The position numbers were made by a program, and so were the translations under genes. DNA of 32,000 nt from NCBI GenBank assembly GCA_001790095.1, contig MGBH01000001.1:960001-992000 (forward strand). The letters run 5' to 3'. The notes under the pieces were generated by a model that saw only the letters and a program-made list of their open reading frames with translations, was not told where the DNA came from and did no database searches. This document shows, piece by piece, positions 3,994 to 32,000 of this stretch (its first letter is position 1; the number at the start of each line of letters is the position of its first letter). This DNA comes from Candidatus Saccharimonadota bacterium (GTDB lineage: Bacteria; Patescibacteriota; Microgenomatia; UBA1406; GWC2-37-13).

Positions 3994-4962
3994 ATGATAT
4001 CGGTCAAAGATCTTACTAAAATTTACAAAGTCCATGAGCGCCAGGGAAATTTTATCAAAGATGTGTTATTTCGCAAATTCAAACGGGTTGAGGCGGTACG
4101 AGAGGTCTCTTTTTCCTTGGAACGCAATGAACTTGTCGGCTTCATAGGCCCCAATGGCGCCGGAAAAACCACAACGCTGAAGATACTAAGCGGTATACTT
4201 TACCCTACTTCTGGGCAGGTGTTTGTTGATGGATTTACTCCTTTTGAAAAAAAACCCGCATTTCTTAAACAGATTGCCTTTGTCATGGGACAGCGAAATC
4301 AGCTCATCTGGGATCTTCCGACAAGAGACAGTTTACAACTTCAGAAAACGATATATGAAGTCTCCGATCTTGAATATAAAAATAATGTACAGGAACTCAC
4401 CTCTCTTCTTGATTGTCAAAATCTGCTGGACAAACCGGTAAAAACGCTTTCTCTGGGTGAGAGAATGAAGATGGAGCTAGTAATGGGGCTCCTCTATAGG
4501 CCACGCATCGTGTTTTTCGATGAGCCAACCATTGGTCTTGATATATTTTCCCAAAGTGCAATAAGGGACTTTATCAAGGAGTATCAATCCGAAACTAAGT
4601 CAACCATCATATTAACAAGCCATTATCTTGAAGATGTTAAACGTCTTGCTAAAAGATTAATCATCATCAATAAAGGGTCAATAGTATATAATGGAAGTTT
4701 GAGTAATATTATTGAACAATATTCGCTTGAAAAGCACGTCAGAGTAACCCTTGACAAAACAGTAAATGAGACAGAAATCCGTAGAATCAATGTGCCATTT
4801 ATGTATACACACCCCAAAATCACCTTTAGCATAAAAAGAGGTGTTTTACCGGAGAAAATCAAGCTTATTACTCAAACTCTTCCTTTTTCAGATCTAACTG
4901 TTGAAGATGAAACGATTGAAGACATCATCAAAAGCTTCTTTGAAGAACAGAGAAACAAATGA
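3994..4962 (+). CDS. ABC transporter ATP-binding protein
   Basis: Walker A GPNGAGKTT, Q-loop MGQRNQ, ABC signature LSLGERMKM, Walker B IVFFDEPTIGLD, H-loop TSHY. The TGA stop lies inside the first bases of the repeat copy at 4959-5040. Confidence 0.92.
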   Translation: MISVKDLTKIYKVHERQGNFIKDVLFRKFKRVEAVREVSFSLERNELVGFIGPNGAGKTTTLKILSGILYPTSGQVFVDGFTPFEKKPAFLKQIAFVMGQRNQLIWDLPTRDSLQLQKTIYEVSDLEYKNNVQELTSLLDCQNLLDKPVKTLSLGERMKMELVMGLLYRPRIVFFDEPTIGLDIFSQSAIRDFIKEYQSETKSTIILTSHYLEDVKRLAKRLIIINKGSIVYNGSLSNIIEQYSLEKHVRVTLDKTVNETEIRRINVPFMYTHPKITFSIKRGVLPEKIKLITQTLPFSDLTVEDETIEDIIKSFFEEQRNK

Positions 4963-5040
4963 CCAATTTTCAATGATCAATTATCAATCAAATTCCGATG
5001 ATAATTGATTGAAAATCGGAAATTGATAATTAATAATTAA
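4959..5040 (+). repeat. Family A AT-rich palindromic element; intergenic copy supplying the TGA stop of the ABC ATPase
   Basis: atgaccaattttcaatgatcaattatcaatcaaattccgatgataattgattgaaaatcggaaattgataatt. The two arms are imperfect reverse complements. Confidence 0.85.
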
Positions 5041-5056
5041 AGCGTATAATTTTAGA

Positions 5057-11148: not shown

Positions 11149-12948
11149 TCACATCGTGCTTGGTGGACCGTGAGTTTTCTTAAAATGAATTACCAACCAA
11201 ACCGAAACCCCAATGAGAATGACAAGGGCAAGGATAAGAAAAATCGCTTGGATAAATATTTTGTTGGTTAATTCTGTGATTTTGGTATCTTTTTGAGTCA
11301 CTTTTGCCCCTGCACCTGCGCCGGTTGTGTCTATCGTATCGCTTGTTTCTTTCGTAATGCTTGGGGTGTTTTTCTTTGGAGACAGGGTGGGTGCGATATT
11401 ATTTTTTGCATCTTTTCCGACAAATGGATTGATTTGTTGCTCTGCAATATATTTTTGATTCTGTGCAAGAAACACCGATGGTTTTGTATTTATTACTTTT
11501 CCGTCAGCGGTCGTATACCGTATCTCATACGGAAATGAGGGAAGATACTCTGATGAGAACTTAAAAAAACCATTGTTGTCTGCGGTCTTTTGTGAATATG
11601 CTTTGTTTGAAAACTGCAGATATACTCCAACTGCCGCATTCGGTATCACCTTTCCGCCTGCATCATAGGCCACTCCTTCAAGGTATTGAGGGATCGGTTC
11701 AAATTTTACAATAGAATTATCACGTTGTGCAGCGCTTACTGACTTGACAATACCGTTTTTTTTAGTGATTGGTTGGCGAAGATCCACCTTGACAAGTTCA
11801 AGTTCAGAAAATATCTCCATGTTTTTGGGATCTTTTTTAAATGAATTTTGATCTATCTCAATATTGAATCTGCCAAATGCATCACTTTGAAACTTCAAAA
11901 CAGAGCTTGGCAGTCCTGTTGATACAAAATTCATCTTTGCATTGAGTTTGGTCAACGGATGAGAAACCTGACCGTCTATAATGATAAGGCCCTGAGGGGT
12001 AGAACGATAAAAATATTCCATCATCTTCACTGGGTTGTTGGTGTTTAGAGTAGCTACCGCAATATCTCTGTGTACGATCTCCCCTTGCTGCTCGATTAAC
12101 TCTTCATTTTGTACAAGATATATATCTGAATAAGCCTTTGCATAATTTGGATCTATGATGTTTGCATCAACAAGTGGGACCGGATTTGAAAGAAGTCTGT
12201 ACTCCCCGTCCGGCACCACAAAACTAAATGCACCATCTTCTTTGACGGTCTGGGGGTTTTGGATATTGCCTCCCGGCAGATCTAAGGCTGTCATATCAAC
12301 AAAGGTACCTCCCTTTTTAATCTGGAGCGTGACCTTGGAGCCTCGTACTGGTTCAAGAGTACCTGCGTCAAACACTCGCCCGTATGGATCCCATGCGATC
12401 TTTGCGCAGTCTTTTTCTGCGGTCTCAAAATCAAAGGTACCTTGCTGTTGTCCCCCTGCCGCGCCAATCGGAGCAGTGGTCGGATCCCAGTAGTTCATCG
12501 CATACCATCTTCTGTCGTGCCCTTCAGGTGTGGAATCTTTCCATTCGTAAGCGCCTCCCCATTCTGTGGGATTGGAGGCTGGGGTGGATCCATTTGATTC
12601 GAATAACCCTTCAAAAACATATTGCAAATCCGTTTGAAGGGTAGCAATGTTTGATTGTTTATATACCACCATGTCTTGTGCTTCGCTGCCTGTAGTACAG
12701 ATTTGAGAGGTTGCTGTGGATACGCACTCTACAATATAGGTAGGAGTACCTGTCAGCGGTTCAAAACCTGATTTGGCGGTGAGCCTTGCTCTATGACCGT
12801 CAGAAACAGAACAAGAGTTTGGGTCTTTCCAACAATGTTCAGATTCTAGACACACCCAGCGTTCTGTTTGCGCAGACTGAGCATGAGCAAAGGGAGTAAA
12901 AATGCATACTAACAAAAAGGTTGCGACAAAAAACATTATTTTTTTCAT
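11149..12948 (-). CDS. Large secreted or cell-surface protein with a C-terminal membrane anchor
   Basis: The track ORF extends to 13068, but its first 40 codons read through a palindromic repeat (RKGGNP). The ATG at 12948 gives a classic signal peptide, MKKIMFFVATFLLVCIFTPFAHAQSA. A C-terminal TM (IFIQAIFLILALVILIGVSVWLVIHF) is preceded by a Thr/Gly/Ala linker. Central beta-rich segments (e.g. VTLQIKKGG...DGAFSFVVPDGEYRL) resemble carboxypeptidase-regulatory/Cna-B-like repeats. Confidence 0.7.
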   Translation of the reverse strand: MKKIMFFVATFLLVCIFTPFAHAQSAQTERWVCLESEHCWKDPNSCSVSDGHRARLTAKSGFEPLTGTPTYIVECVSTATSQICTTGSEAQDMVVYKQSNIATLQTDLQYVFEGLFESNGSTPASNPTEWGGAYEWKDSTPEGHDRRWYAMNYWDPTTAPIGAAGGQQQGTFDFETAEKDCAKIAWDPYGRVFDAGTLEPVRGSKVTLQIKKGGTFVDMTALDLPGGNIQNPQTVKEDGAFSFVVPDGEYRLLSNPVPLVDANIIDPNYAKAYSDIYLVQNEELIEQQGEIVHRDIAVATLNTNNPVKMMEYFYRSTPQGLIIIDGQVSHPLTKLNAKMNFVSTGLPSSVLKFQSDAFGRFNIEIDQNSFKKDPKNMEIFSELELVKVDLRQPITKKNGIVKSVSAAQRDNSIVKFEPIPQYLEGVAYDAGGKVIPNAAVGVYLQFSNKAYSQKTADNNGFFKFSSEYLPSFPYEIRYTTADGKVINTKPSVFLAQNQKYIAEQQINPFVGKDAKNNIAPTLSPKKNTPSITKETSDTIDTTGAGAGAKVTQKDTKITELTNKIFIQAIFLILALVILIGVSVWLVIHFKKTHGPPSTM

Positions 12949-13023
12949 ATTTTCATGATAGAAGATTTGTACTAAAGAATCAAGAGAGTTAAATCTGTCA
13001 TCCCCATAAGTATTGAAATGGTA

Positions 13024-13053
13024 GCATGGATTCCCGCCTTTGCGGGAATAACG
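13024..13053 (-). repeat. Family B palindromic element (short form)
   Basis: gcatggattcccgcctttgcgggaataacg. It has the same attcccgc/gcgggaat hairpin. Confidence 0.8.
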
Positions 13054-13107
13054 GTATAAGAATACCAAAGTAAGTCATTTGAGCTCAGTAAAATATTTTA
13101 TTGTTTT

Positions 13108-13142
13108 CTGTCATCCCCGCGTTAGAGTGGATTAAGTCTATA
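13108..13142 (+). repeat. Family B palindromic element, degenerate right arm
   Basis: ctgtcatccccgcgttagagtggattaagtctata keeps the TGTCATCCCCG start and the AGTCTATA end. Confidence 0.65.
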
Positions 13143-13163
13143 TTTAATATCTTTAATAGAGAT

Positions 13164-13222
13164 AAGTCATCCCCGTGAGTCAAGGACTTCCCTTTGGGAA
13201 AGACGGGGATCCAGTCTATAAT
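13164..13222 (+). repeat. Family B palindromic element (long form), immediately upstream of the GIY-YIG gene
   Basis: aagtcatccccgtgag...cttccctttgggaaag...acggggatccagtctataat. The outer stem is atccccgt/acggggat, there is an inner hairpin cttccc/gggaag, and the element ends in TATAAT. Confidence 0.85.
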
Positions 13223-13231
13223 AACCTTAAT

Positions 13232-13516
13232 ATGTTTGAAAAAACGTTTTATGTTTACATCCTATCTTCTCAAAAAAATGGAACACTGTATGTTGGAGTA
13301 ACAAACAATCTTATGAAGCGCATTTGGGAACATAAAAATAAATTGGTTGATGGGTTTACTAAAAAATATGAAATTCACCATTTGGTTTACTATGAAATAC
13401 ATGATAATCCAGAATCGGCAATACAGCGAGAAAAACAAATAAAGAAATGGAATCGTCTATGGAAAATCAGATTGATAGAAGAAAAGAATCCTGAGTGGAA
13501 AGATTTGTATATTTAG
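13232..13516 (+). CDS. Stand-alone GIY-YIG nuclease superfamily protein (UPF0213/COG2827-like)
   Basis: FYVYILSSQKNGTLYVGVTNNLMKRIWEHK ... GFTKKYEIHHLVYYE ... AIQREKQIKKW matches the GIY-(10)-YVG, R..EH and E..IK blocks. The track start at 13175 reads through a repeat. The ATG at 13232 follows a TATAAT supplied by the repeat end. Confidence 0.85.
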   Translation: MFEKTFYVYILSSQKNGTLYVGVTNNLMKRIWEHKNKLVDGFTKKYEIHHLVYYEIHDNPESAIQREKQIKKWNRLWKIRLIEEKNPEWKDLYI

Positions 13517-13545
13517 TCTGGATTCCCGCCTTCGCGGGAATGACA
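13514..13545 (-). repeat. Family B palindromic element immediately downstream of the GIY-YIG gene, in inverted orientation; contains its TAG stop
   Basis: tagtctggattcccgccttcgcgggaatgaca. Confidence 0.9.
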
Positions 13546-13602
13546 ATGCAAATAAGTAACGTTGTAAGCTACGAGGTATATGATAACCATCATATATTTC
13601 TT

Positions 13603-13638
13603 TGTCATCCTCGGGCTTGGCCCGGGGATCCAGACTAT
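13603..13638 (+). repeat. Family B palindromic element
   Basis: tgtcatcctcgggcttggcccggggatccagactat. Confidence 0.8.
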
Positions 13639-13654
13639 GATTACAGATCAGATT

Positions 13655-13798
13655 CACCCTCATCTCCTAGACGATAAGATATGTATCATCTCAGAGATGA
13701 GGGTGTTGTGGTAGTTGGAATCAGATTTTGAGCCATGGTTGGGCTAGTCTCGCAAGATGCGAGACTCAATCCATGGCACTGTGCCACACACAACACCC
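13655..13798. other. Nested-stem structured element (candidate ncRNA or DNA cruciform) between the repeat cluster and the lipoprotein gene
   Basis: Four perfect stems can be read directly: caccctcatctc (13655-13666) with gagatgagggtg (13694-13705); gggtgttgtg (13701-13710) with cacaacaccc (13789-13798); gccatgg (13732-13738) with ccatggc (13771-13777); and agtctcgca (13746-13754) with tgcgagact (13758-13766). Confidence 0.5.
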
Positions 13799-13814
13799 TA
13801 CATCGGATGGAATT

Positions 13815-14348
13815 TTACTTGACGCGAGCCCACCAGTCATACAAATTGAGATAGGCCTTGCCCGACTCAAAACTGATAAAGCCCACACTCATCTCATCTT
13901 CATCGTTACAACCGCTGACGAGGTATTGATCACCCTGGTGATAAACTTCTCCCGTGAGGGTTATTTCCCATTCCCCAACATTATTCTGCGTTGGTCTTTC
14001 ATCAACGTAGATAATGATTGTAACGTCATACAACCACCCAGCATCAATACAGGCGTTTGTATACTCTACCTTATAGGGCGACCTCTCCATCGTTAACTCG
14101 CGCTTCTCAACAACAGTTGATAGCGCGTATTCGGGGGAAGAACAGATCATGGGAGGGTGACATTCAGGCGTGATTGACGGAGCGGGGGGTTGAGGGGTGG
14201 ACGGAATGGCTGTGGGTTGTGGCTGCGGAGTTGATTCATTGGTCGGGACCGACGGTTGCGGTTCCGGAGTTGATACGGGGCTACCAAAGCATGCGCTTAT
14301 CAGCGTAGCAATAAGTAGCAAGCAAGCAACATTATACAGTTTCTTCAT
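13815..14348 (-). CDS. Lipoprotein with a Pro-rich linker
   Basis: The signal peptide plus lipobox is MKKLYNVACLLLIATLISAC. This is followed by a PQPxP-rich linker and a Cys-containing globular domain. It is preceded by a canonical AAGGAG 6 nt before the ATG, and it is visibly GC-richer than its neighbours. Confidence 0.7.
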   Translation of the reverse strand: MKKLYNVACLLLIATLISACFGSPVSTPEPQPSVPTNESTPQPQPTAIPSTPQPPAPSITPECHPPMICSSPEYALSTVVEKRELTMERSPYKVEYTNACIDAGWLYDVTIIIYVDERPTQNNVGEWEITLTGEVYHQGDQYLVSGCNDEDEMSVGFISFESGKAYLNLYDWWARVK

Positions 14349-14779
14349 AATTAACTCCTTATACTTCGTTTGATGGGTTGATAGAAATACATGCAGTTTT
14401 TTATCTTATATCATCTTATACTTGTCTCCTTTCTTCATCAATTCAATGATGAACTCCTATTTAAACACATAGAATAATCATGCGCTTAAAACGGAGTTCA
14501 TCACTTTAGAATAATTCCAACCGATGTTTTTTCAAAGAGCTTTTTAACCTGTTTTTTGATTTGCTTGTATCAAAAATGGTTAAAAAACAAAAAAATCCAT
14601 ACAACTACTGCAGAATGCTTATCTCTGCTTTGTTTATATCTTATAGTATTATATCACACCCATAGTGTATATGTATCAAATATGTATATTTAACCATCTA
14701 ATGACTCATTTTGTGCATGCCGCTGTTATTAGTTTGAAAATGAAGTTAAAGAAGAATTCAGAAGTAAAAAAAACAAAAA

Positions 14780-15430
14780 TTATTTTGTAGCACCAGCCAT
14801 AGGAACAACTCGCAATCCAAAGTGACTGAGATCACCCATAGACTTTTTTAGCATTATAGCCATATCTGCTAAATCAGCATTAGCTGGATTAAGGCTGTCT
14901 ATTGAATCTTGTAGAGAAAGCCTAGCAACCTGAAGCACGTCCTGAGCCTGTTCGCTCGGTGGCAATTGAGTACCGTATTCGAGATCTTTAAACTCAGGAG
15001 CATCTACCCATTTTCCCTCTCCGCCATCTCCTTTTTCCCAACAAGTAAGTTTCATGCCAAAATCAGATACATTACGCCCAGGTGTTATTGATCCAGTTTC
15101 TTGCGTTTCCTTCAAAGAGTATGGTTTTTCATCAGGTCCCCAGAACCTAACCTCAACAGCTTCCTTAGTCAATGGTTTTCCAGATGCTTTGCTCTTACCC
15201 TCCACTGTTCTTGTATAAGTGACTCCATCCCAGCTTAGTTTTCCACTAGGTTCTTGTGCTCTCAGATCAATTTTGTCTTTCTCCGGACTCATGTCACAAA
15301 TTCGTGGTCGTCCAAATCGATCTTTTTCCTGTCCAGGTTTGATCAAAGGTTCTGTTTGAGGAACCGCTTTTGCATGTGTTGCTGAAAAACCTGTAACATC
15401 ACCACCTTCTCCCATATGAATCAAGCACAT
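14780..15430 (-). CDS. Hypothetical protein (orphan); last gene of the thyA-folA operon
   Basis: 216 aa and soluble, with no motif I recognise. It lies 20 nt downstream of the DUF1599-like gene on the same strand. An alternative start is M6. Confidence 0.5.
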   Translation of the reverse strand: MCLIHMGEGGDVTGFSATHAKAVPQTEPLIKPGQEKDRFGRPRICDMSPEKDKIDLRAQEPSGKLSWDGVTYTRTVEGKSKASGKPLTKEAVEVRFWGPDEKPYSLKETQETGSITPGRNVSDFGMKLTCWEKGDGGEGKWVDAPEFKDLEYGTQLPPSEQAQDVLQVARLSLQDSIDSLNPANADLADMAIMLKKSMGDLSHFGLRVVPMAGATK

Positions 15431-15450: not shown

Positions 15451-15765
15451 TTACTTTTTTTTCTTTTTCAACTCAAGTTTTTGAAACCATTTGCGGCGAA
15501 ACATCATAGCGATCACTGCATACACTCCAATATCCATCCAGCTGTCATCTATTGATTCGTGTTTTGGATTTTTGTTCACCAATAACAGATTTTTCAGTCT
15601 GTTTAATTTATCACTTATCCTGTATGCAATCCCCATCTCGCCCGTATCAAGGATATTACCCTTACCATAATCTCTGTGTTTTTTTATAAACAGTGTTTTT
15701 AACTCACCACATATCTCCTCAAACGCGCTGTCCAAATCTGTTGGTTGTTTCATTGGTTGCTTCAT
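15451..15765 (-). CDS. DUF1599-like (nucleotide-modification-associated domain 1 / all-alpha MazG-like) protein
   Basis: 104 aa and helical. It has the KHRDYGKGN ... RISDKLNRL blocks typical of small MazG/DUF1599-type proteins that accompany thyA in phage and bacterial nucleotide loci. The assignment is from memory of the family, not from a search. Confidence 0.55.
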   Translation of the reverse strand: MKQPMKQPTDLDSAFEEICGELKTLFIKKHRDYGKGNILDTGEMGIAYRISDKLNRLKNLLLVNKNPKHESIDDSWMDIGVYAVIAMMFRRKWFQKLELKKKKK

Positions 15766-15814
15766 ATAATTAATAATTAATAAATTAACGGGTTAAAGGA
15801 TTAACAGATTTCAC

Positions 15815-16330
15815 TTATTCTTTCTCCAAATCAAGAAACGTAAACCTTGCTCCCTTTTCTTCTCTCTCTTCTTTTGAGACAACTTTTGTAAATGCCGAAT
15901 AATCAGGAAAAAACTTATCACCATCAAATTCTCCCTTTACAATAGTTAAATAGAGTCTATCTACAAGGTGGATCGTCTGCTTAAATATCTGCTCTCCTCC
16001 TGATATAAATACTTCTTCTGTTTCTATCTCTTTAGCTTTCTGTAAAGCCCCATCGATTGATGAAACCACAAAGCACCGCTCCTGTTTTGGATCATAGGCA
16101 GTGTCGCGGGTTATGATGATTGTATTTCGCTCTGGCATGGGTTTTCCACTTCTTTGATAGTATCCAAGAAGCGAGTCAAAGGTGCCTCTCCCCATGATGA
16201 CGGTATGATGAAGCGTTTTTTCTTTAAAACGGACAAGGTCAGCGCGTATATGCCACGGTATGAGGTCGCCCTTGCCGATGACTCTGTTTTCAGACAGGGC
16301 ACAGATGATGCTAAGTTTCGGATTGTTCAT
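15815..16330 (-). CDS. folA: Dihydrofolate reductase
   Basis: LSIICALSENRVIGKGDLIPWHIRADLVRFKEKT, VIMGRGTFDSL, ISGGEQIFK. It sits immediately downstream of thyA. Confidence 0.9.
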   Translation of the reverse strand: MNNPKLSIICALSENRVIGKGDLIPWHIRADLVRFKEKTLHHTVIMGRGTFDSLLGYYQRSGKPMPERNTIIITRDTAYDPKQERCFVVSSIDGALQKAKEIETEEVFISGGEQIFKQTIHLVDRLYLTIVKGEFDGDKFFPDYSAFTKVVSKEEREEKGARFTFLDLEKE

Positions 16331-16379
16331 ACTAATTATGCTTAACCACTGTTTAACCTACGAGGTTAAAAGTGGGCTG

Positions 16380-17399
16380 TTAGATCGCCCTAAGTTTTTT
16401 TAATAGCTTTAAATTTTCATCATATAATCCACCCGTTACACTCAGCGATGCTTTGATTGGTAGATGTGGATTGTATCCTACCAAATCAACATATGATGGT
16501 TCAAAGTCGTCAACCGTTTTAAAAGAATGATTGAAATGTATCGTGGGAAATACTTTTGGTTTTCTTTTTAGCTGTTCTTGGACTTGGGTTACGTGCAGTT
16601 CATAGATGTGCACATCCCCAAACGTATGGATAAATTCTCCGGGTTCATATCCTGTTACTTTTGCCAGAATCAATGCAAGTAAAGCATAGCTTGCGATATT
16701 AAAAGGTACTCCTAAAAATATGTCAGCACTTCGCTGATAAAGCTGAAGGCTTAATTTACCATCAATGATATTGATCTGGTACATGTTGTGACATATGGGA
16801 AAGCGGGATGCATCTTTTTTGAGAGCCATCGTATAAAGATACTCGGGATTCCATGAGTTGACGATAAGATTATGCGCTGCTGGGTCTTCTTTAATCTCCT
16901 GAATTACCCATTTAAGCTGATCAATAGTCCTGGGTTTACCCTGTAAATCTTTAGATTTACATGGCCAACGTCTCCACATCTCACCATAAATTCTTGGAAG
17001 CTCTCCCCATTTCTTTGCAAACTTTTCATCAGCTGCAATATTGTTTATAAATTCCTCTTTTGATAATAATTCTTTATACTTTATACTTTCTACTTTCTTC
17101 TTACTCTTTTCCACGTAAATCCTATACGGATAATCGTCCCATATATGTACATTATTATCGACTAAATATTTAATATTTAACATACCCTTCATAAACCAAT
17201 TCAATTCATGCAGTACTCCTTTCCAATACACCTTTTTAGTGGTCAGAAGAGGAAAGCCCTGGGATAAATCAAATCGTATCTGGCGCCCAAACACGCTCTG
17301 AGACACATCTCCTGTACCCCTGTCAACTTTTTTGACTCCATGATCAAGTATGTCTTGAAGAAGATCAAGATATTGATATTCGGGGTGTCTGTACTTCAT
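16380..17399 (-). CDS. thyA: Thymidylate synthase (ThyA type, long form with a small-domain insert)
   Basis: DRGTG, FPLLTTKK, LHELNWF, nucleophile block FPICHNMYQ, YQRSADIFLGVPFNIASYALL (the Asn indicates dUMP specificity), GDVHIYELH. Confidence 0.95.
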   Translation of the reverse strand: MKYRHPEYQYLDLLQDILDHGVKKVDRGTGDVSQSVFGRQIRFDLSQGFPLLTTKKVYWKGVLHELNWFMKGMLNIKYLVDNNVHIWDDYPYRIYVEKSKKKVESIKYKELLSKEEFINNIAADEKFAKKWGELPRIYGEMWRRWPCKSKDLQGKPRTIDQLKWVIQEIKEDPAAHNLIVNSWNPEYLYTMALKKDASRFPICHNMYQINIIDGKLSLQLYQRSADIFLGVPFNIASYALLALILAKVTGYEPGEFIHTFGDVHIYELHVTQVQEQLKRKPKVFPTIHFNHSFKTVDDFEPSYVDLVGYNPHLPIKASLSVTGGLYDENLKLLKKLRAI

Positions 17400-17462
17400 A
17401 TCCCCATCAATATAGAATTATTTTTGAGTTTTATCAAGAGCAAAAAAGAAGATTAAGCCAAG

Positions 17463-17981
17463 TTATGATCGAGAGGTTTTAGAAGTTAATAAAGGGCAGG
17501 AATCAAGGATAGAAGGATTGGGTCTATTTATAAGTAGTTGCCGCATGAGGTCAAGGGATGAAGGTTGAGCGTTCAATCCATTTGTTTGTGCTCTTACTAA
17601 TTCTGTTGCGTCCCTGTAATCTTGTGGTTGTAATGGTTGTTTGCTGTTTAAACGAACCGCAGGATACCATCTATCTATCCTATTGCTATCAAGTTCATAG
17701 ATAGCAACACCATTTCGTTCAACCACTTGAGAAGTTAAAAGAAGTGCGTGAGTGTATGTGTCTGTGTCTTTTAGCACCATCCAGTTTGCTGCCTGCGGTG
17801 GAACTACATATTCCGGCATCATAAACCACCGCATTGGCATCCCTAATTTACCCTCTTTGATTAATCTATATTCTTCATCAGATACGATCCGTAAAAAATA
17901 CCCTGTAGAGTCTTTTTCTGTCACAAGTTCGCGTATCCTATCCCCAACATATTTATCTGAGAATTGTGGTGGTAATTCCAT
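17463..17981 (-). CDS. Hypothetical protein (orphan); first gene of the thyA-folA operon
   Basis: 172 aa and soluble, with no recognisable motif. It is on the same strand 63 nt upstream of thyA. Confidence 0.5.
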   Translation of the reverse strand: MELPPQFSDKYVGDRIRELVTEKDSTGYFLRIVSDEEYRLIKEGKLGMPMRWFMMPEYVVPPQAANWMVLKDTDTYTHALLLTSQVVERNGVAIYELDSNRIDRWYPAVRLNSKQPLQPQDYRDATELVRAQTNGLNAQPSSLDLMRQLLINRPNPSILDSCPLLTSKTSRS

Positions 17982-18113
17982 ACTTGTATGGTATCATGTT
18001 TTTAATCTATAAATAGACACCACCCATGAATCCACGAGTAAATGTGCTCAACAACTATTCTCCCCACACTACCTGAATCTTTCTAACCTTTTTATCCATT
18101 TTTTCCTAAATCC

Positions 18114-18794
18114 ATGCACAAAAAAAATTACTATATTATTGATTTTGACAGCACCTTTGTAAGATGTGAAGTATTGGAAGAGATAGCAAAGATATCTCTT
18201 CATGACAACCCGGATAAAAAAATTATTCTTAAAGAAATTGTTGCGATCTGTAATCTTGGTATGGAGGGCGCTCTCCCCTTTGAAGAAAGTCTTACTAGAA
18301 GATTAACTTTATTGCATGCCAATAAAGAGGATTTAAAAAAAGTCCGTGATGTATTGAAAAAAAACATTACTCCCTCCATATTGATACATAAAGAATTTTT
18401 TAAAAAGAACAAAGAACAAATTTATGTTATATCCGGCGCATTTAAAGAATGTATAACACCCATAACAAAACTATTTGAGATATCTGATAGTCATGTACTT
18501 GCAAATACATTTGTCTTTGATGACAGAGACAACATCATAGGAATAGACCTTCAGAATACACTTTCTCACAAATTTGGAAAAGTAAAAGCCGTACAAGCAT
18601 TGGATTTAAAAGGTAAACTTATCGTTGTTGGCGACGGCTATACTGATTATGAAATAAGAAAAGAAGAACTAGCTCATGTTTTTGTCGCATTTACTGAAAA
18701 CGTGAGACGGGAAAGCGTCATATCAAAAGCAGACTATGTGGCTGCAAATTTCGATGAATTCTTAAGACTTATCTCAACTGATCTTAACCGTTAA
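18114..18794 (+). CDS. HAD-superfamily hydrolase, subfamily IB (phosphoserine-phosphatase-like)
   Basis: Motif I IIDFDSTF (DxDxT), motif II VISGAF, a Lys (GKVKA), and motif IV VGDGYTDYE. Confidence 0.8.
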   Translation: MHKKNYYIIDFDSTFVRCEVLEEIAKISLHDNPDKKIILKEIVAICNLGMEGALPFEESLTRRLTLLHANKEDLKKVRDVLKKNITPSILIHKEFFKKNKEQIYVISGAFKECITPITKLFEISDSHVLANTFVFDDRDNIIGIDLQNTLSHKFGKVKAVQALDLKGKLIVVGDGYTDYEIRKEELAHVFVAFTENVRRESVISKADYVAANFDEFLRLISTDLNR

Positions 18795-19330
18795 ATCTGT
18801 GTTTCCCTTTTTGAAGTTGTCACACGCCCACCCTGCCATTGTCCTTTATATTGATTTCCTCCCCCATCTACCCACTCAAACTGCGCATGTACAAAACGTG
18901 CTCCCATCTCAATAACAACTTCTACCTGCCCTTCGTTTTTAAGACCAAAGGTAAGCTTACCACAGTATCCTGGCGCTCCGTTGCCTGTGCGCAAATTAAG
19001 ACCTGACCTAAAGGTAGTAGTACGAGGCTTGAAATTCACCGTAATATCAAGGGGAAGATTGACTTTTTCAATTGTCGTAACCAAGAAGTAATCACCTGGC
19101 TTAATCGTAATGGTGTTTTTCTTTCCTTCTTCATACTTTGTTACAAGTTCAATTGTTGGCGTTTCTCTCTCGGTTATTCCTAAAAATGCATGGCCTGATA
19201 TCTTATAAACTTCTCCCAGTCGCATATCAAACCCCGCCCCCTCAGGAGTCTTTAAATCCCGCTCTCCTAATCCTTCAACCAGTTTTTTTTCTTTAACCAA
19301 TTTTAATAGTAACTCCGGACCAAGGATCAT
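18791..19330 (-). CDS. dCTP deaminase/dUTPase-fold protein, divergent at the catalytic positions
   Basis: A gap-free by-eye alignment to E. coli Dcd covers DMRLGE (DVRLGN), PGDYFLVTTIEKVNLP, PRTTTFRSG (GRSSLARLG), GAPGYCGKLTFGLKNEG (IDPGWSGCIVLEFYNSG) and a C-terminal YKGQWQ. The Dcd catalytic Glu aligns with Gly, and the ID of IDPG aligns with GA. Confidence 0.7.
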   Translation of the reverse strand: MILGPELLLKLVKEKKLVEGLGERDLKTPEGAGFDMRLGEVYKISGHAFLGITERETPTIELVTKYEEGKKNTITIKPGDYFLVTTIEKVNLPLDITVNFKPRTTTFRSGLNLRTGNGAPGYCGKLTFGLKNEGQVEVVIEMGARFVHAQFEWVDGGGNQYKGQWQGGRVTTSKRETQI

Positions 19331-30678: not shown

Positions 30679-32000
30679 ATGTTTAAAAAGTTCCCCCTTA
30701 TTTTTTTGTGTGTACTTCTCTTTTATACCCGCTTTGTTGGTCTAGACTGGGGGTTGCCATACCCTATGCATCCTGATGAACGCAATATGGCCGTCGCAGT
30801 TCAGCAACTTACCTGTAAAGGGTTGGGGCCAATCGCCTATCTCCAACCGCTAACCGAATGTCTGAATCCTCACTTTTTTGCGTATGGACAGTTTCCGATC
30901 TATCTTGCATATTTTGGCATACTCATATTCCATTTTTTGCAAGGCATAAAAGCTCCTCCTGGTTTTATTGAGGCTACGATGGCTTTGCGAACAATCTCGG
31001 CATTAGCCTCAGTAGCAAATGCTTTTGTATTGTTTCGTATCATCGAATTTTCAATTTTAGATTTTCAATTTTCAAACAAATCTCATTCTAAAAATTCAAA
31101 AAATAAAAAATTGAATGAAAATTGGTTATTGAAAATTGGTTCATTCCTGGTCTTGATATTCTCTCCTTACTTCATCCAATTCTCCCATTTTGGTACCACC
31201 GAGTCACTTCTTATGCTCTTTTATTCTTTCATCATTTACGAATGCATCAAGCTCATTCAGAACAAAAACCTAAACACTAACTACTATCTACTAGCTACTA
31301 TTTCAGGAATTGCAATCGCCACAAAAGTTTCCTCCGTACTGTTTTTAGCCGTACCTGTCGTGTTTATAGGTATAAAAACAGGTTTGAGAAGTCTAACTGT
31401 ACTCTTTACTCTTTCCCGCTTTATTCTTCTTACCATGCTCGTCTCTATCATCTTTTCTCCCCACAACATCATCTCCCTTGAAGAGTTTGCGGGCTCGATG
31501 AACTATGAATCAGCGGTGGCAATCGGAAGCTATGTTGCCTTTTACACCAAACAGTTTGTCAATGCTCCCCCCCTTATATTTCAACTGACTAAGATTTTCC
31601 CTTTTGTATTGGGTTGGCCTCAATTTATATTGTCTGTCCTTGGTCTTCTTGTCTTATCATGGAGAGATAAAAGGATAAACGTGCTTCGATTTGCTTTTAT
31701 CGTTTTTTTTCTTCCGAATGCGTTTGTATTTGCAAAATGGACACGATTTATGACGCCTATTTTCCCGATTTTAAGCTTATTTACAATTCTCACACTTTGC
31801 AAACTTCTTAAAGTTTTCCAAAACAAATTCTCAATTATCAATGATCAATTTTCAATCATTTATCGAAAACTGAAAATTGAACGTTGGAGGTGTATTGAAA
31901 ATTGGAAATTGAAAATTGATCATTCTATAGTTTTTATATTAATCACTATAGTAATTCTCCCCGGTATCGCATACCTTTCTATCTACCAAACACCTGATGT
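30679..32000 (+). CDS. GT39/ArnT/PMT-like polytopic membrane glycosyltransferase; partial, continuing beyond the window end
   Basis: Absent from the track because it has no stop in the window. My translation from the ATG at 30679 gives MFKKFPLIFLCVLLFYTRFVGLDWGLPYPMHPDERNMAVA..., followed by many TM helices. Two in-frame repeat inserts encode IEFSILDFQFSNKSHSKNSKNKKLNENWLLKIGS and FSIINDQFSIIYRKLKIERWRCIENWKLKIDH. Confidence 0.8.
   Translation, partial: MFKKFPLIFLCVLLFYTRFVGLDWGLPYPMHPDERNMAVAVQQLTCKGLGPIAYLQPLTECLNPHFFAYGQFPIYLAYFGILIFHFLQGIKAPPGFIEATMALRTISALASVANAFVLFRIIEFSILDFQFSNKSHSKNSKNKKLNENWLLKIGSFLVLIFSPYFIQFSHFGTTESLLMLFYSFIIYECIKLIQNKNLNTNYYLLATISGIAIATKVSSVLFLAVPVVFIGIKTGLRSLTVLFTLSRFILLTMLVSIIFSPHNIISLEEFAGSMNYESAVAIGSYVAFYTKQFVNAPPLIFQLTKIFPFVLGWPQFILSVLGLLVLSWRDKRINVLRFAFIVFFLPNAFVFAKWTRFMTPIFPILSLFTILTLCKLLKVFQNKFSIINDQFSIIYRKLKIERWRCIENWKLKIDHSIVFILITIVILPGIAYLSIYQTPD
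31045..31142 (-). repeat. Family A element inside the GT39 gene, in frame, antisense orientation relative to the gene
   Basis: The reverse complement starts tgaaccaattttcaataacc and ends ttgaaaattgaaaatctaaaattgaaaattc. This matches the start and tail of the 3099 and 4959 copies. Confidence 0.75.
31827..31924 (+). repeat. Family A element inside the GT39 gene, in frame, sense orientation
   Basis: The segment caattatcaatgatcaattttcaatca ... ctgaaaattga ... ttgaaaattggaaattgaaaattgatca compares with caattttcaatgatcaattatcaatca at 4965-4990. Confidence 0.8.

Follow-up and report, generated by a model that had tools for sequence, protein, structure and literature searches.

A strongly structured intergenic element in a Roizmanbacterium, possibly the 3′ end of an orphan lipoprotein transcript

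A 145-nt intergenic element on the 1.2-Mb contig MGBF01000001.1 of Candidatus Roizmanbacteria bacterium RIFOXYB2_FULL_38_10 (GCA_001790045.1, Rifle groundwater) has a structure that is real and strongly non-random, and ordinary in kind. The reading that we prefer, and hold tentatively, is that the transcript of an orphan lipoprotein gene on the minus strand ends in this structured element, a lineage-specific tandem hairpin acquired with that gene. We infer its transcription, strand, and function from its structure, position, and composition, which were analyzed in a 32-kb window (the whole stretch of 32,000 nt of DNA under study).

Fold, setting, and composition of the element

The element (13655-13799) lies inside a 298-nt spacer between two convergent genes, the stop codons of which are at 13516 and 13815. 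Neighboring genes are mostly on the minus strand. The features of the element and its surroundings are as follows.

13655..13705, minus strand: hairpin 1, with a 12-bp perfect core (13655-13666 with 13694-13705)
13700..13799, minus strand: three-tier rod of ~100 nt, with outer, middle, and apical stems
13700-13710 with 13789-13799: outer stem of the rod, 11 bp, perfect
13732-13738 (GCCATGG) with 13771-13777 (CCATGGC): middle stem of the rod, 7 bp, perfect
13746-13754 with 13758-13766: apical stem of the rod, 9 bp, perfect, with a 3-nt loop
13673..13750, minus strand: C-rich, G-poor stretch (25 C, 8 G) made up of two arms, the 3′ one of the rod and the 5′ one of hairpin 1
13815..14348, minus strand: orphan lipoprotein ORF, 177 aa, with a signal peptide and a Cys lipobox, ~49% GC
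14780..15430, minus strand: 216-aa ORF
start at about 12936-12947, minus strand: CarboxypepD_reg-like protein, 595 aa, the next minus-strand gene past the element
13175/13232-13516, plus strand: GIY-YIG ORF (PF01541, E 1.3e-16), flanked by the lipoprotein and 595-aa genes
13199..13546, plus strand: mobile GIY-YIG unit (context, outside the element), consisting of a left hairpin GTCATCCCCG..CGGGGATCCAGTCTAT, the GIY-YIG ORF, and a right hairpin GGATTCCCGCCTTCGCGGGAATGAC
13604..13644: solo left-end hairpin of the GIY-YIG unit (GTCATCCTCGGGCTTGGCCCGGGGATCCAGACTAT), the last recognizable repeat before the element
500-1855: Rho gene
other genes around the element: thymidylate synthase, DHFR, a DUF1599 protein, and QueA

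The original prediction, made from the sequence alone, read four perfect helices of 12, 10, 7, and 9 bp, the last three of which would nest into a rod. The helices of 12, 7, and 9 bp are where they had been placed and the three-tier rod is confirmed, but its outer stem is 11 bp long, not 10. With a 1-nt bulge, this outer stem extends to GATG/CATC (13696-13804), and the middle stem forms 10 pairs with one bulge in the MFE structure. The arms of hairpin 1 extend to 22 nt, with 86% complementarity and a 7-nt loop. Two of its three mismatches turn into G.U pairs on the minus strand only, and on that strand hairpin 1 has 21 pairs and one mismatch, with the same 7-nt loop. Its pair probabilities are 0.7-1.0. 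The segment had also been called noncoding, with a mobile-looking repeat cluster on one side and the 3′ end of the lipoprotein gene on the other; indeed, we found no credible ORF within the element, and this position is correct.

The significance of the fold was judged against dinucleotide shuffles, and RNA folding bears the predicted structure out on both strands. The MFE is −62.8 kcal/mol on the plus strand (z −3.95) and −72.6 kcal/mol on the minus strand (z −6.87), a value equaled by 0 of 200 shuffles. Only two G.U pairs are behind this asymmetry of ~10 kcal/mol in favor of the minus strand. Folding with DNA parameters gives −37.1 kcal/mol (z −6.69). When a 150-nt frame was slid along all 32 kb and the MFE regressed on GC, the element ranked second on each strand, the other peaks being the repeat hairpins at ~13501 and a site at ~14441, just upstream of the lipoprotein gene. 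As assessed on the minus strand, the full convergent spacer (13500-13830) reaches z −9.46 and forms four consecutive hairpins. On the other side of the lipoprotein gene, the upstream spacer (14400-14640, minus strand) is structured as strongly as the element (z −6.44, and −5.3 in the sliding scan), with a hairpin with 24-nt arms at 14447-14503 and an AT-rich one at 14541-14586. The gene thus lies between the two regions of the window that are most structured on the minus strand.

The element had been described as much more GC-rich than the genome. It is more GC-rich, but moderately so (48.6% versus 39.0% for the window), and it equals the adjacent lipoprotein ORF (49.1%), whose GC content is the highest among the ORFs of the window. 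Because both are ~10 GC points above the genome, they probably arrived jointly as one foreign piece, the element coming in with the orphan lipoprotein gene. This agrees with the suggestion that the element marks the edge of an acquired segment, since it borders a compositionally distinct, apparently acquired stretch. The 216-aa ORF has a GC content of 43%, versus 39% for the window, and together with the 177-aa ORF it seems to form a small island of genes, either foreign or arisen de novo. No convincing direct or inverted repeats were found that would bound this GC island as a cassette.

A 12-mer of hairpin 1, GAGATGAGGGTG, occurs at 13655 (minus strand), 13694 (plus strand), and, with one mismatch, 13884 (minus strand, inside the lipoprotein ORF). 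At ≤2 mismatches it has 10 matches in the window versus 1.9 expected, and 0 of 100 shuffles reach 10. The minus strand, which is gene-rich, carries nine of the 10 matches, and most matches fall within genes. A protein-binding site was considered and rejected, as the excess may be due to coding-strand composition.

Several features farther away deserve mention in their own right. A long thymidylate synthase homologue (339 aa), DHFR, the DUF1599 protein (a match to "nucleotide modification associated domain 1", under the Pfam cut-off), and a dCTP-deaminase-like protein are clustered at 15451-19330, in a set that resembles phage pyrimidine-modification genes. AT-rich inverted repeats with a motif that is roughly AATGATCAATTTTCAAT / ATTGAAAATTGATCATT are found at three intergenic places (4958-5041, 31039-31144, and 31826-31924) and may be a dispersed repeat or binding-site family. 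Approximately 4 kb beyond position 1 of the window, a 99-aa gene with 23S_rRNA_IVP / bAvd-like Pfam matches (L046, 15972-16271) hints at a diversity-generating retroelement close by, which is unrelated to the element.

A possible structured transcript end

Placing the element at the 3′ end of the lipoprotein transcript is suggested by its distance from the stop codon, the GC content that it shares with the ORF, the better fold of the minus strand, and the order of signals along that strand, which is terminator, then promoter. Indeed, in the minus-strand reading the rod starts 15 nt past the stop codon of the lipoprotein ORF, and the 595-aa gene has a promoter-like site of its own, TTGATT-17-TATCAT (12983-12955, minus strand), downstream of the element. 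In this promoter-like site (window 12947-12983, minus strand), the −10 TATCAT ends ~7 nt before an in-frame ATG (MKKIMFF...), a spacing that suggests that the mRNA of the 595-aa gene is leaderless or nearly so.

A lipoprotein transcript of this kind would carry the 100-nt rod shortly after its stop codon, followed by the abutting 21-pair hairpin 1. These hairpins could shield the mRNA from 3′-to-5′ exonucleases, and they might help end transcription without a U-tract by pausing RNA polymerase for Rho. Alternatively, they could be a roadblock that separates the lipoprotein and GIY-YIG transcripts where these converge. There are precedents in Escherichia coli, where, according to a preprint, REP palindromes are dual 3′-UTR terminators/stabilizers, and their presence between two convergent genes correlates with higher expression of each (bioRxiv 10.64898/2026.03.23.713779). 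Like E. coli REPs of the REP325 type, the element consists of tandem stable palindromic hairpins that follow a gene and lie between convergent ones, without a U-tract, and a Rho gene is available in the genome. On the other hand, REPs are ~35 nt long, exist in many copies, and have a conserved GTAG-plus-palindrome, whereas the element is 145 nt long, is single-copy in the ~50 kb examined (the window plus a further ~18 kb of flanking genome), and has GTAG at one end only. The element also resembles the putative "I-shaped" terminators, which have a GC-rich stem-loop past the stop codon and no U-run, but these are far smaller than a nested rod plus a second hairpin.

As had been predicted, the element is no simple terminator: neither strand has a U-tract after the hairpins, and a terminator scan gave only a weak 5-pair site at 13809-13794. 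Intrinsic termination at the element is doubtful, since in vitro work with mycobacterial RNA polymerase (PMC3993855) did not confirm that hairpins of the "I-shaped" kind, which lack a U-tract, are intrinsic terminators. The C-rich stretch at 13673..13750 of the minus strand has a C/G ratio of 3.1, the 99th percentile of 78-nt windows on that strand being 2.66, and in composition it resembles a Rho-loading site. However, the predicted fold ties it up in base pairs, which would be an obstacle to the loading of Rho. In the window as a whole, hairpin-plus-U-tract sites number 18 versus 11.7 ± 3.1 and 14 versus 10.4 ± 3.3 in shuffles, ~1-2 S.D. above the mean. Because these sites are barely above chance and most, by our reading, are not at gene ends, other 3′-end signals are to be expected in this genome. 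A full-text literature search for terminators of Candidate Phyla Radiation (CPR) bacteria found nothing.

Searches for relatives and the palindromic-DNA alternative

The locus is conserved without change in 21 assemblies of the same Rifle population, all 100% identical over 12900-14500 or the part covered by the contig, so there is no variation in which covariation could be seen. Outside this population, a word-indexed search of 5.8 billion proteins gave no homologue of the lipoprotein or of the 216-aa ORF, and a full HMMER pass over 1.84 billion representatives found no relative of the lipoprotein. Because the lipoprotein and its 216-aa neighbor are orphans, syntenic loci are out of reach. 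As for the element itself, blastn against phages and plasmids returned nothing, or 24-nt chance matches at E 0.5. In viral_contigs, scans with the terminal inverted repeat pair, the apical hairpin, and hairpin 1 returned nothing, or sequences in which the similarity ends at the pattern. One exact-pattern scan each was made of metagenome_contigs and genome_contigs, and neither returned the locus of the window itself. The former, using the 19-mer of the left end, gave five matches, all by chance and without extension. The latter, using the pattern AGGGTGTTGTG-N65-95-CACAACACCCT (11+11 terminal inverted repeats) in 185,579 genomes, gave six matches in four Campylobacterota metagenome-assembled genomes (MAGs) and one evident chance match. 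The homologues in other genomes that might have backed the original prediction are thus absent from these pattern scans of public collections, and within the searches made the element appears to be lineage-specific.

The six Campylobacterota sequences are copies of a REP doublet (REPIN-like), located at L013 3005-3115, L014 4427-4515, L015 5396-5504, L016 1390-1497, L018 2545-2649, and L019 5005-5099. Each end of a doublet consists of GTAG followed by GGTGTTGTG-NNNN-CACAACACC, which forms a 9-bp hairpin; the ends are in inverted orientation and enclose AT-rich interiors of ~40-60 nt that are unrelated to one another. These doublets, GTAGGGTGTTGTG-CCCT-CACAACACC, are like the element in having identical outer 11-mers (AGGGTGTTGTG / CACAACACCCT), a 3′ flank AC, and a length of 89-111 nt that is partly imposed by the search pattern. 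In addition, the end of the element on the minus strand, GTAGGGTGTTGTG, is the same 13-mer; its other end is TGAGGGTGTTGTG. The doublets have a 9-bp hairpin in each end and a variable, AT-rich interior; the element has neither such an interior nor a local short palindrome at either end. We rejected the doublets as homologues, only the outer 11-13 nt agreeing with no further similarity. The match is probably due to chance, because no more than 11 bases of such a repeat are independent of one another and very many palindrome families are present in 185,579 genomes. No RAYT (Y1 transposase) was found in the window or the fetched flanks.

Comparison with other palindrome families bears on the main rival to a transcript end, namely that the element is a relic at the DNA level without RNA function: a single, possibly decayed MITE-, REPIN-, or ERIC-like copy, or the scar of an acquired-segment junction. 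Like MITE and ERIC sequences, the rod is ~100 nt long, self-complementary throughout, intergenic, and probably co-transcribed, and its terminal inverted repeats of 11 bp (13700-13710 with 13789-13799, 78 nt apart) are perfect, as is typical of a MITE. This alternative is kept alive by these repeats and by the DNA fold, which is equally significant, and it is consistent with the location of the element at the edge of the GC island, adjoining the cluster of mobile hairpins, and with the 13-mer that also starts the Campylobacterota doublet family. However, neither other copies nor a target-site duplication nor a nearby transposase were found for the element: no second copy exists in the ~50 kb of genome, none turned up in the three contig collections or among phages and plasmids, and the flanks (GAGATG / ACATCG) are not a direct repeat. 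The Campylobacterota match, limited to the outermost nucleotides of a different architecture, is plausibly due to chance, and all stems are perfect, whereas a decaying relic in an AT-rich genome would soon lose them. We therefore regard a DNA-level relic as unlikely, although it is the chief competitor. A separate candidate, an integron attC site, was rejected. On either strand the first arm is GTTGTG and the last arm CACAAC, in an order opposite to the consensus (RYYYAAC at the 5′ end, GTTRRRY at the 3′ end) and with a sequence that matches it in neither arm, and neither an integrase nor a second attC-like site was found in the window or flanks.

The neighboring mobile unit and other readings

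The very stable structure would also suit a free-standing small RNA gene of ~150 nt on the minus strand, driven by a promoter located where the lipoprotein ORF ends. A promoter-like site is present there, ATGACT-17-TAAAAT (13840-13812), ending ~13 nt before the rod, but it scores 9/12, and sites of this kind are about as common as chance would have them (7 versus 6.4 expected). The lack of a terminator and of a matching Rfam family makes such a gene improbable, as does the lack of any sign of selection on the structure, no homologues having been found. It is a similarly long shot that the element represents a ~150-nt lineage-specific structured noncoding RNA of a CPR bacterium, or the founding copy of a new palindromic mobile element, acquired with the lipoprotein gene and belonging to no described family.

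Rfam 15 gives 0 matches at gathering score in the whole window. At E≤10, there are only matches of microRNA models to hairpin 1 (E 2.5 and 6.8) and matches of the Francisella sRNA FtrB (RF02748) to the neighboring repeats, one of the weak FtrB matches overlapping hairpin 1. Neither tRNA nor tmRNA was found. The Infernal comparison with Rfam that the original prediction proposed thus yields no relevant family at either threshold. The FtrB matches (21 and 20 bits; E 1.4 and 2.4) concern both hairpin sequences of the GIY-YIG unit, and FtrB may contain remnants of such a unit.

This small GIY-YIG gene looks like a widely traveling selfish unit with conserved hairpins at both ends, the left one given as GTCATCCCC..GGGGATCCAGTCTAT and the right one as GGATTCCCGC..GCGGGAATGAC. 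Solo end hairpins of the unit are scattered in the window (6345, 12997, 13028, 13110, 13604, and ~25192). The protein has 7,954 homologues at E≤1e-10, the best of which are 70-87% identical, and these include proteins of other Roizmanbacteria/CPR bacteria and of a Sulfuricaulis (gammaproteobacterial) MAG. A full-text search of the literature found no link between GIY-YIG and REP.

The original prediction had speculated that the element could be a guide or scaffold RNA of the adjacent nuclease, and one may add a homing target, i.e. an RNA or DNA partner in general. Proximity is what speaks for it, with ~140 nt between the GIY-YIG ORF and the element, but three loci of homologues at 75-84% identity have unrelated gene contexts, and the DNA homology of the window with other GIY-YIG loci (L037, L038, L039, L044, and L045) is restricted to 13199-13546. 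The element begins 109 nt past this limit, and searches of the homologue loci by blastn and with R1, a covariance model built from the element, both failed to find it there. Since the homology stops at 13546 and the element is missing from these loci, the guide or scaffold idea is unsupported, and a partnership of any of these kinds is very improbable.

Equally remote is a riboswitch or attenuator, in which two competing folds would control a downstream gene. The original prediction was right that the 12-bp stem and the rod share bases, the outermost 5-6 bp of the rod overlapping hairpin 1 (13700/13701-13705), but not in seeing there the layout of a switch. When either helix is forced, the MFE is −62.8 versus −61.8 kcal/mol on the plus strand and −72.6 versus −71.1 kcal/mol on the minus strand, a gap of 1.0 and 1.5 kcal/mol, respectively. 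Both folds keep every other pair and swap only the 5-6 end pairs, so that in this model the exchange is branch migration at a helix junction. It neither creates nor hides a terminator, anti-terminator, or ribosome-binding site; no leader peptide was found in the element; and Rfam is silent even at E≤10. Before insertion of the GIY-YIG unit, the 595-aa gene would have followed the element on the same strand at a distance of ~70-130 nt, which would suit a leader, but ~650 nt of mobile DNA now separate the two. Nor is the element a 5′ leader, since two convergent genes have their 3′ ends on either side of it and the promoter-like site of the 595-aa gene is downstream of it.

Read as the possible 3′ end of the lipoprotein transcript, the element is one more stable stem-loop pair at the end of a gene, and as it stands it matters little. 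Roizmanbacteria and other CPR bacteria have no mapped transcript ends, and the convergent spacer, with its four hairpins and an overall z of −9.5, is a convenient test case for how CPR bacteria end their transcripts.
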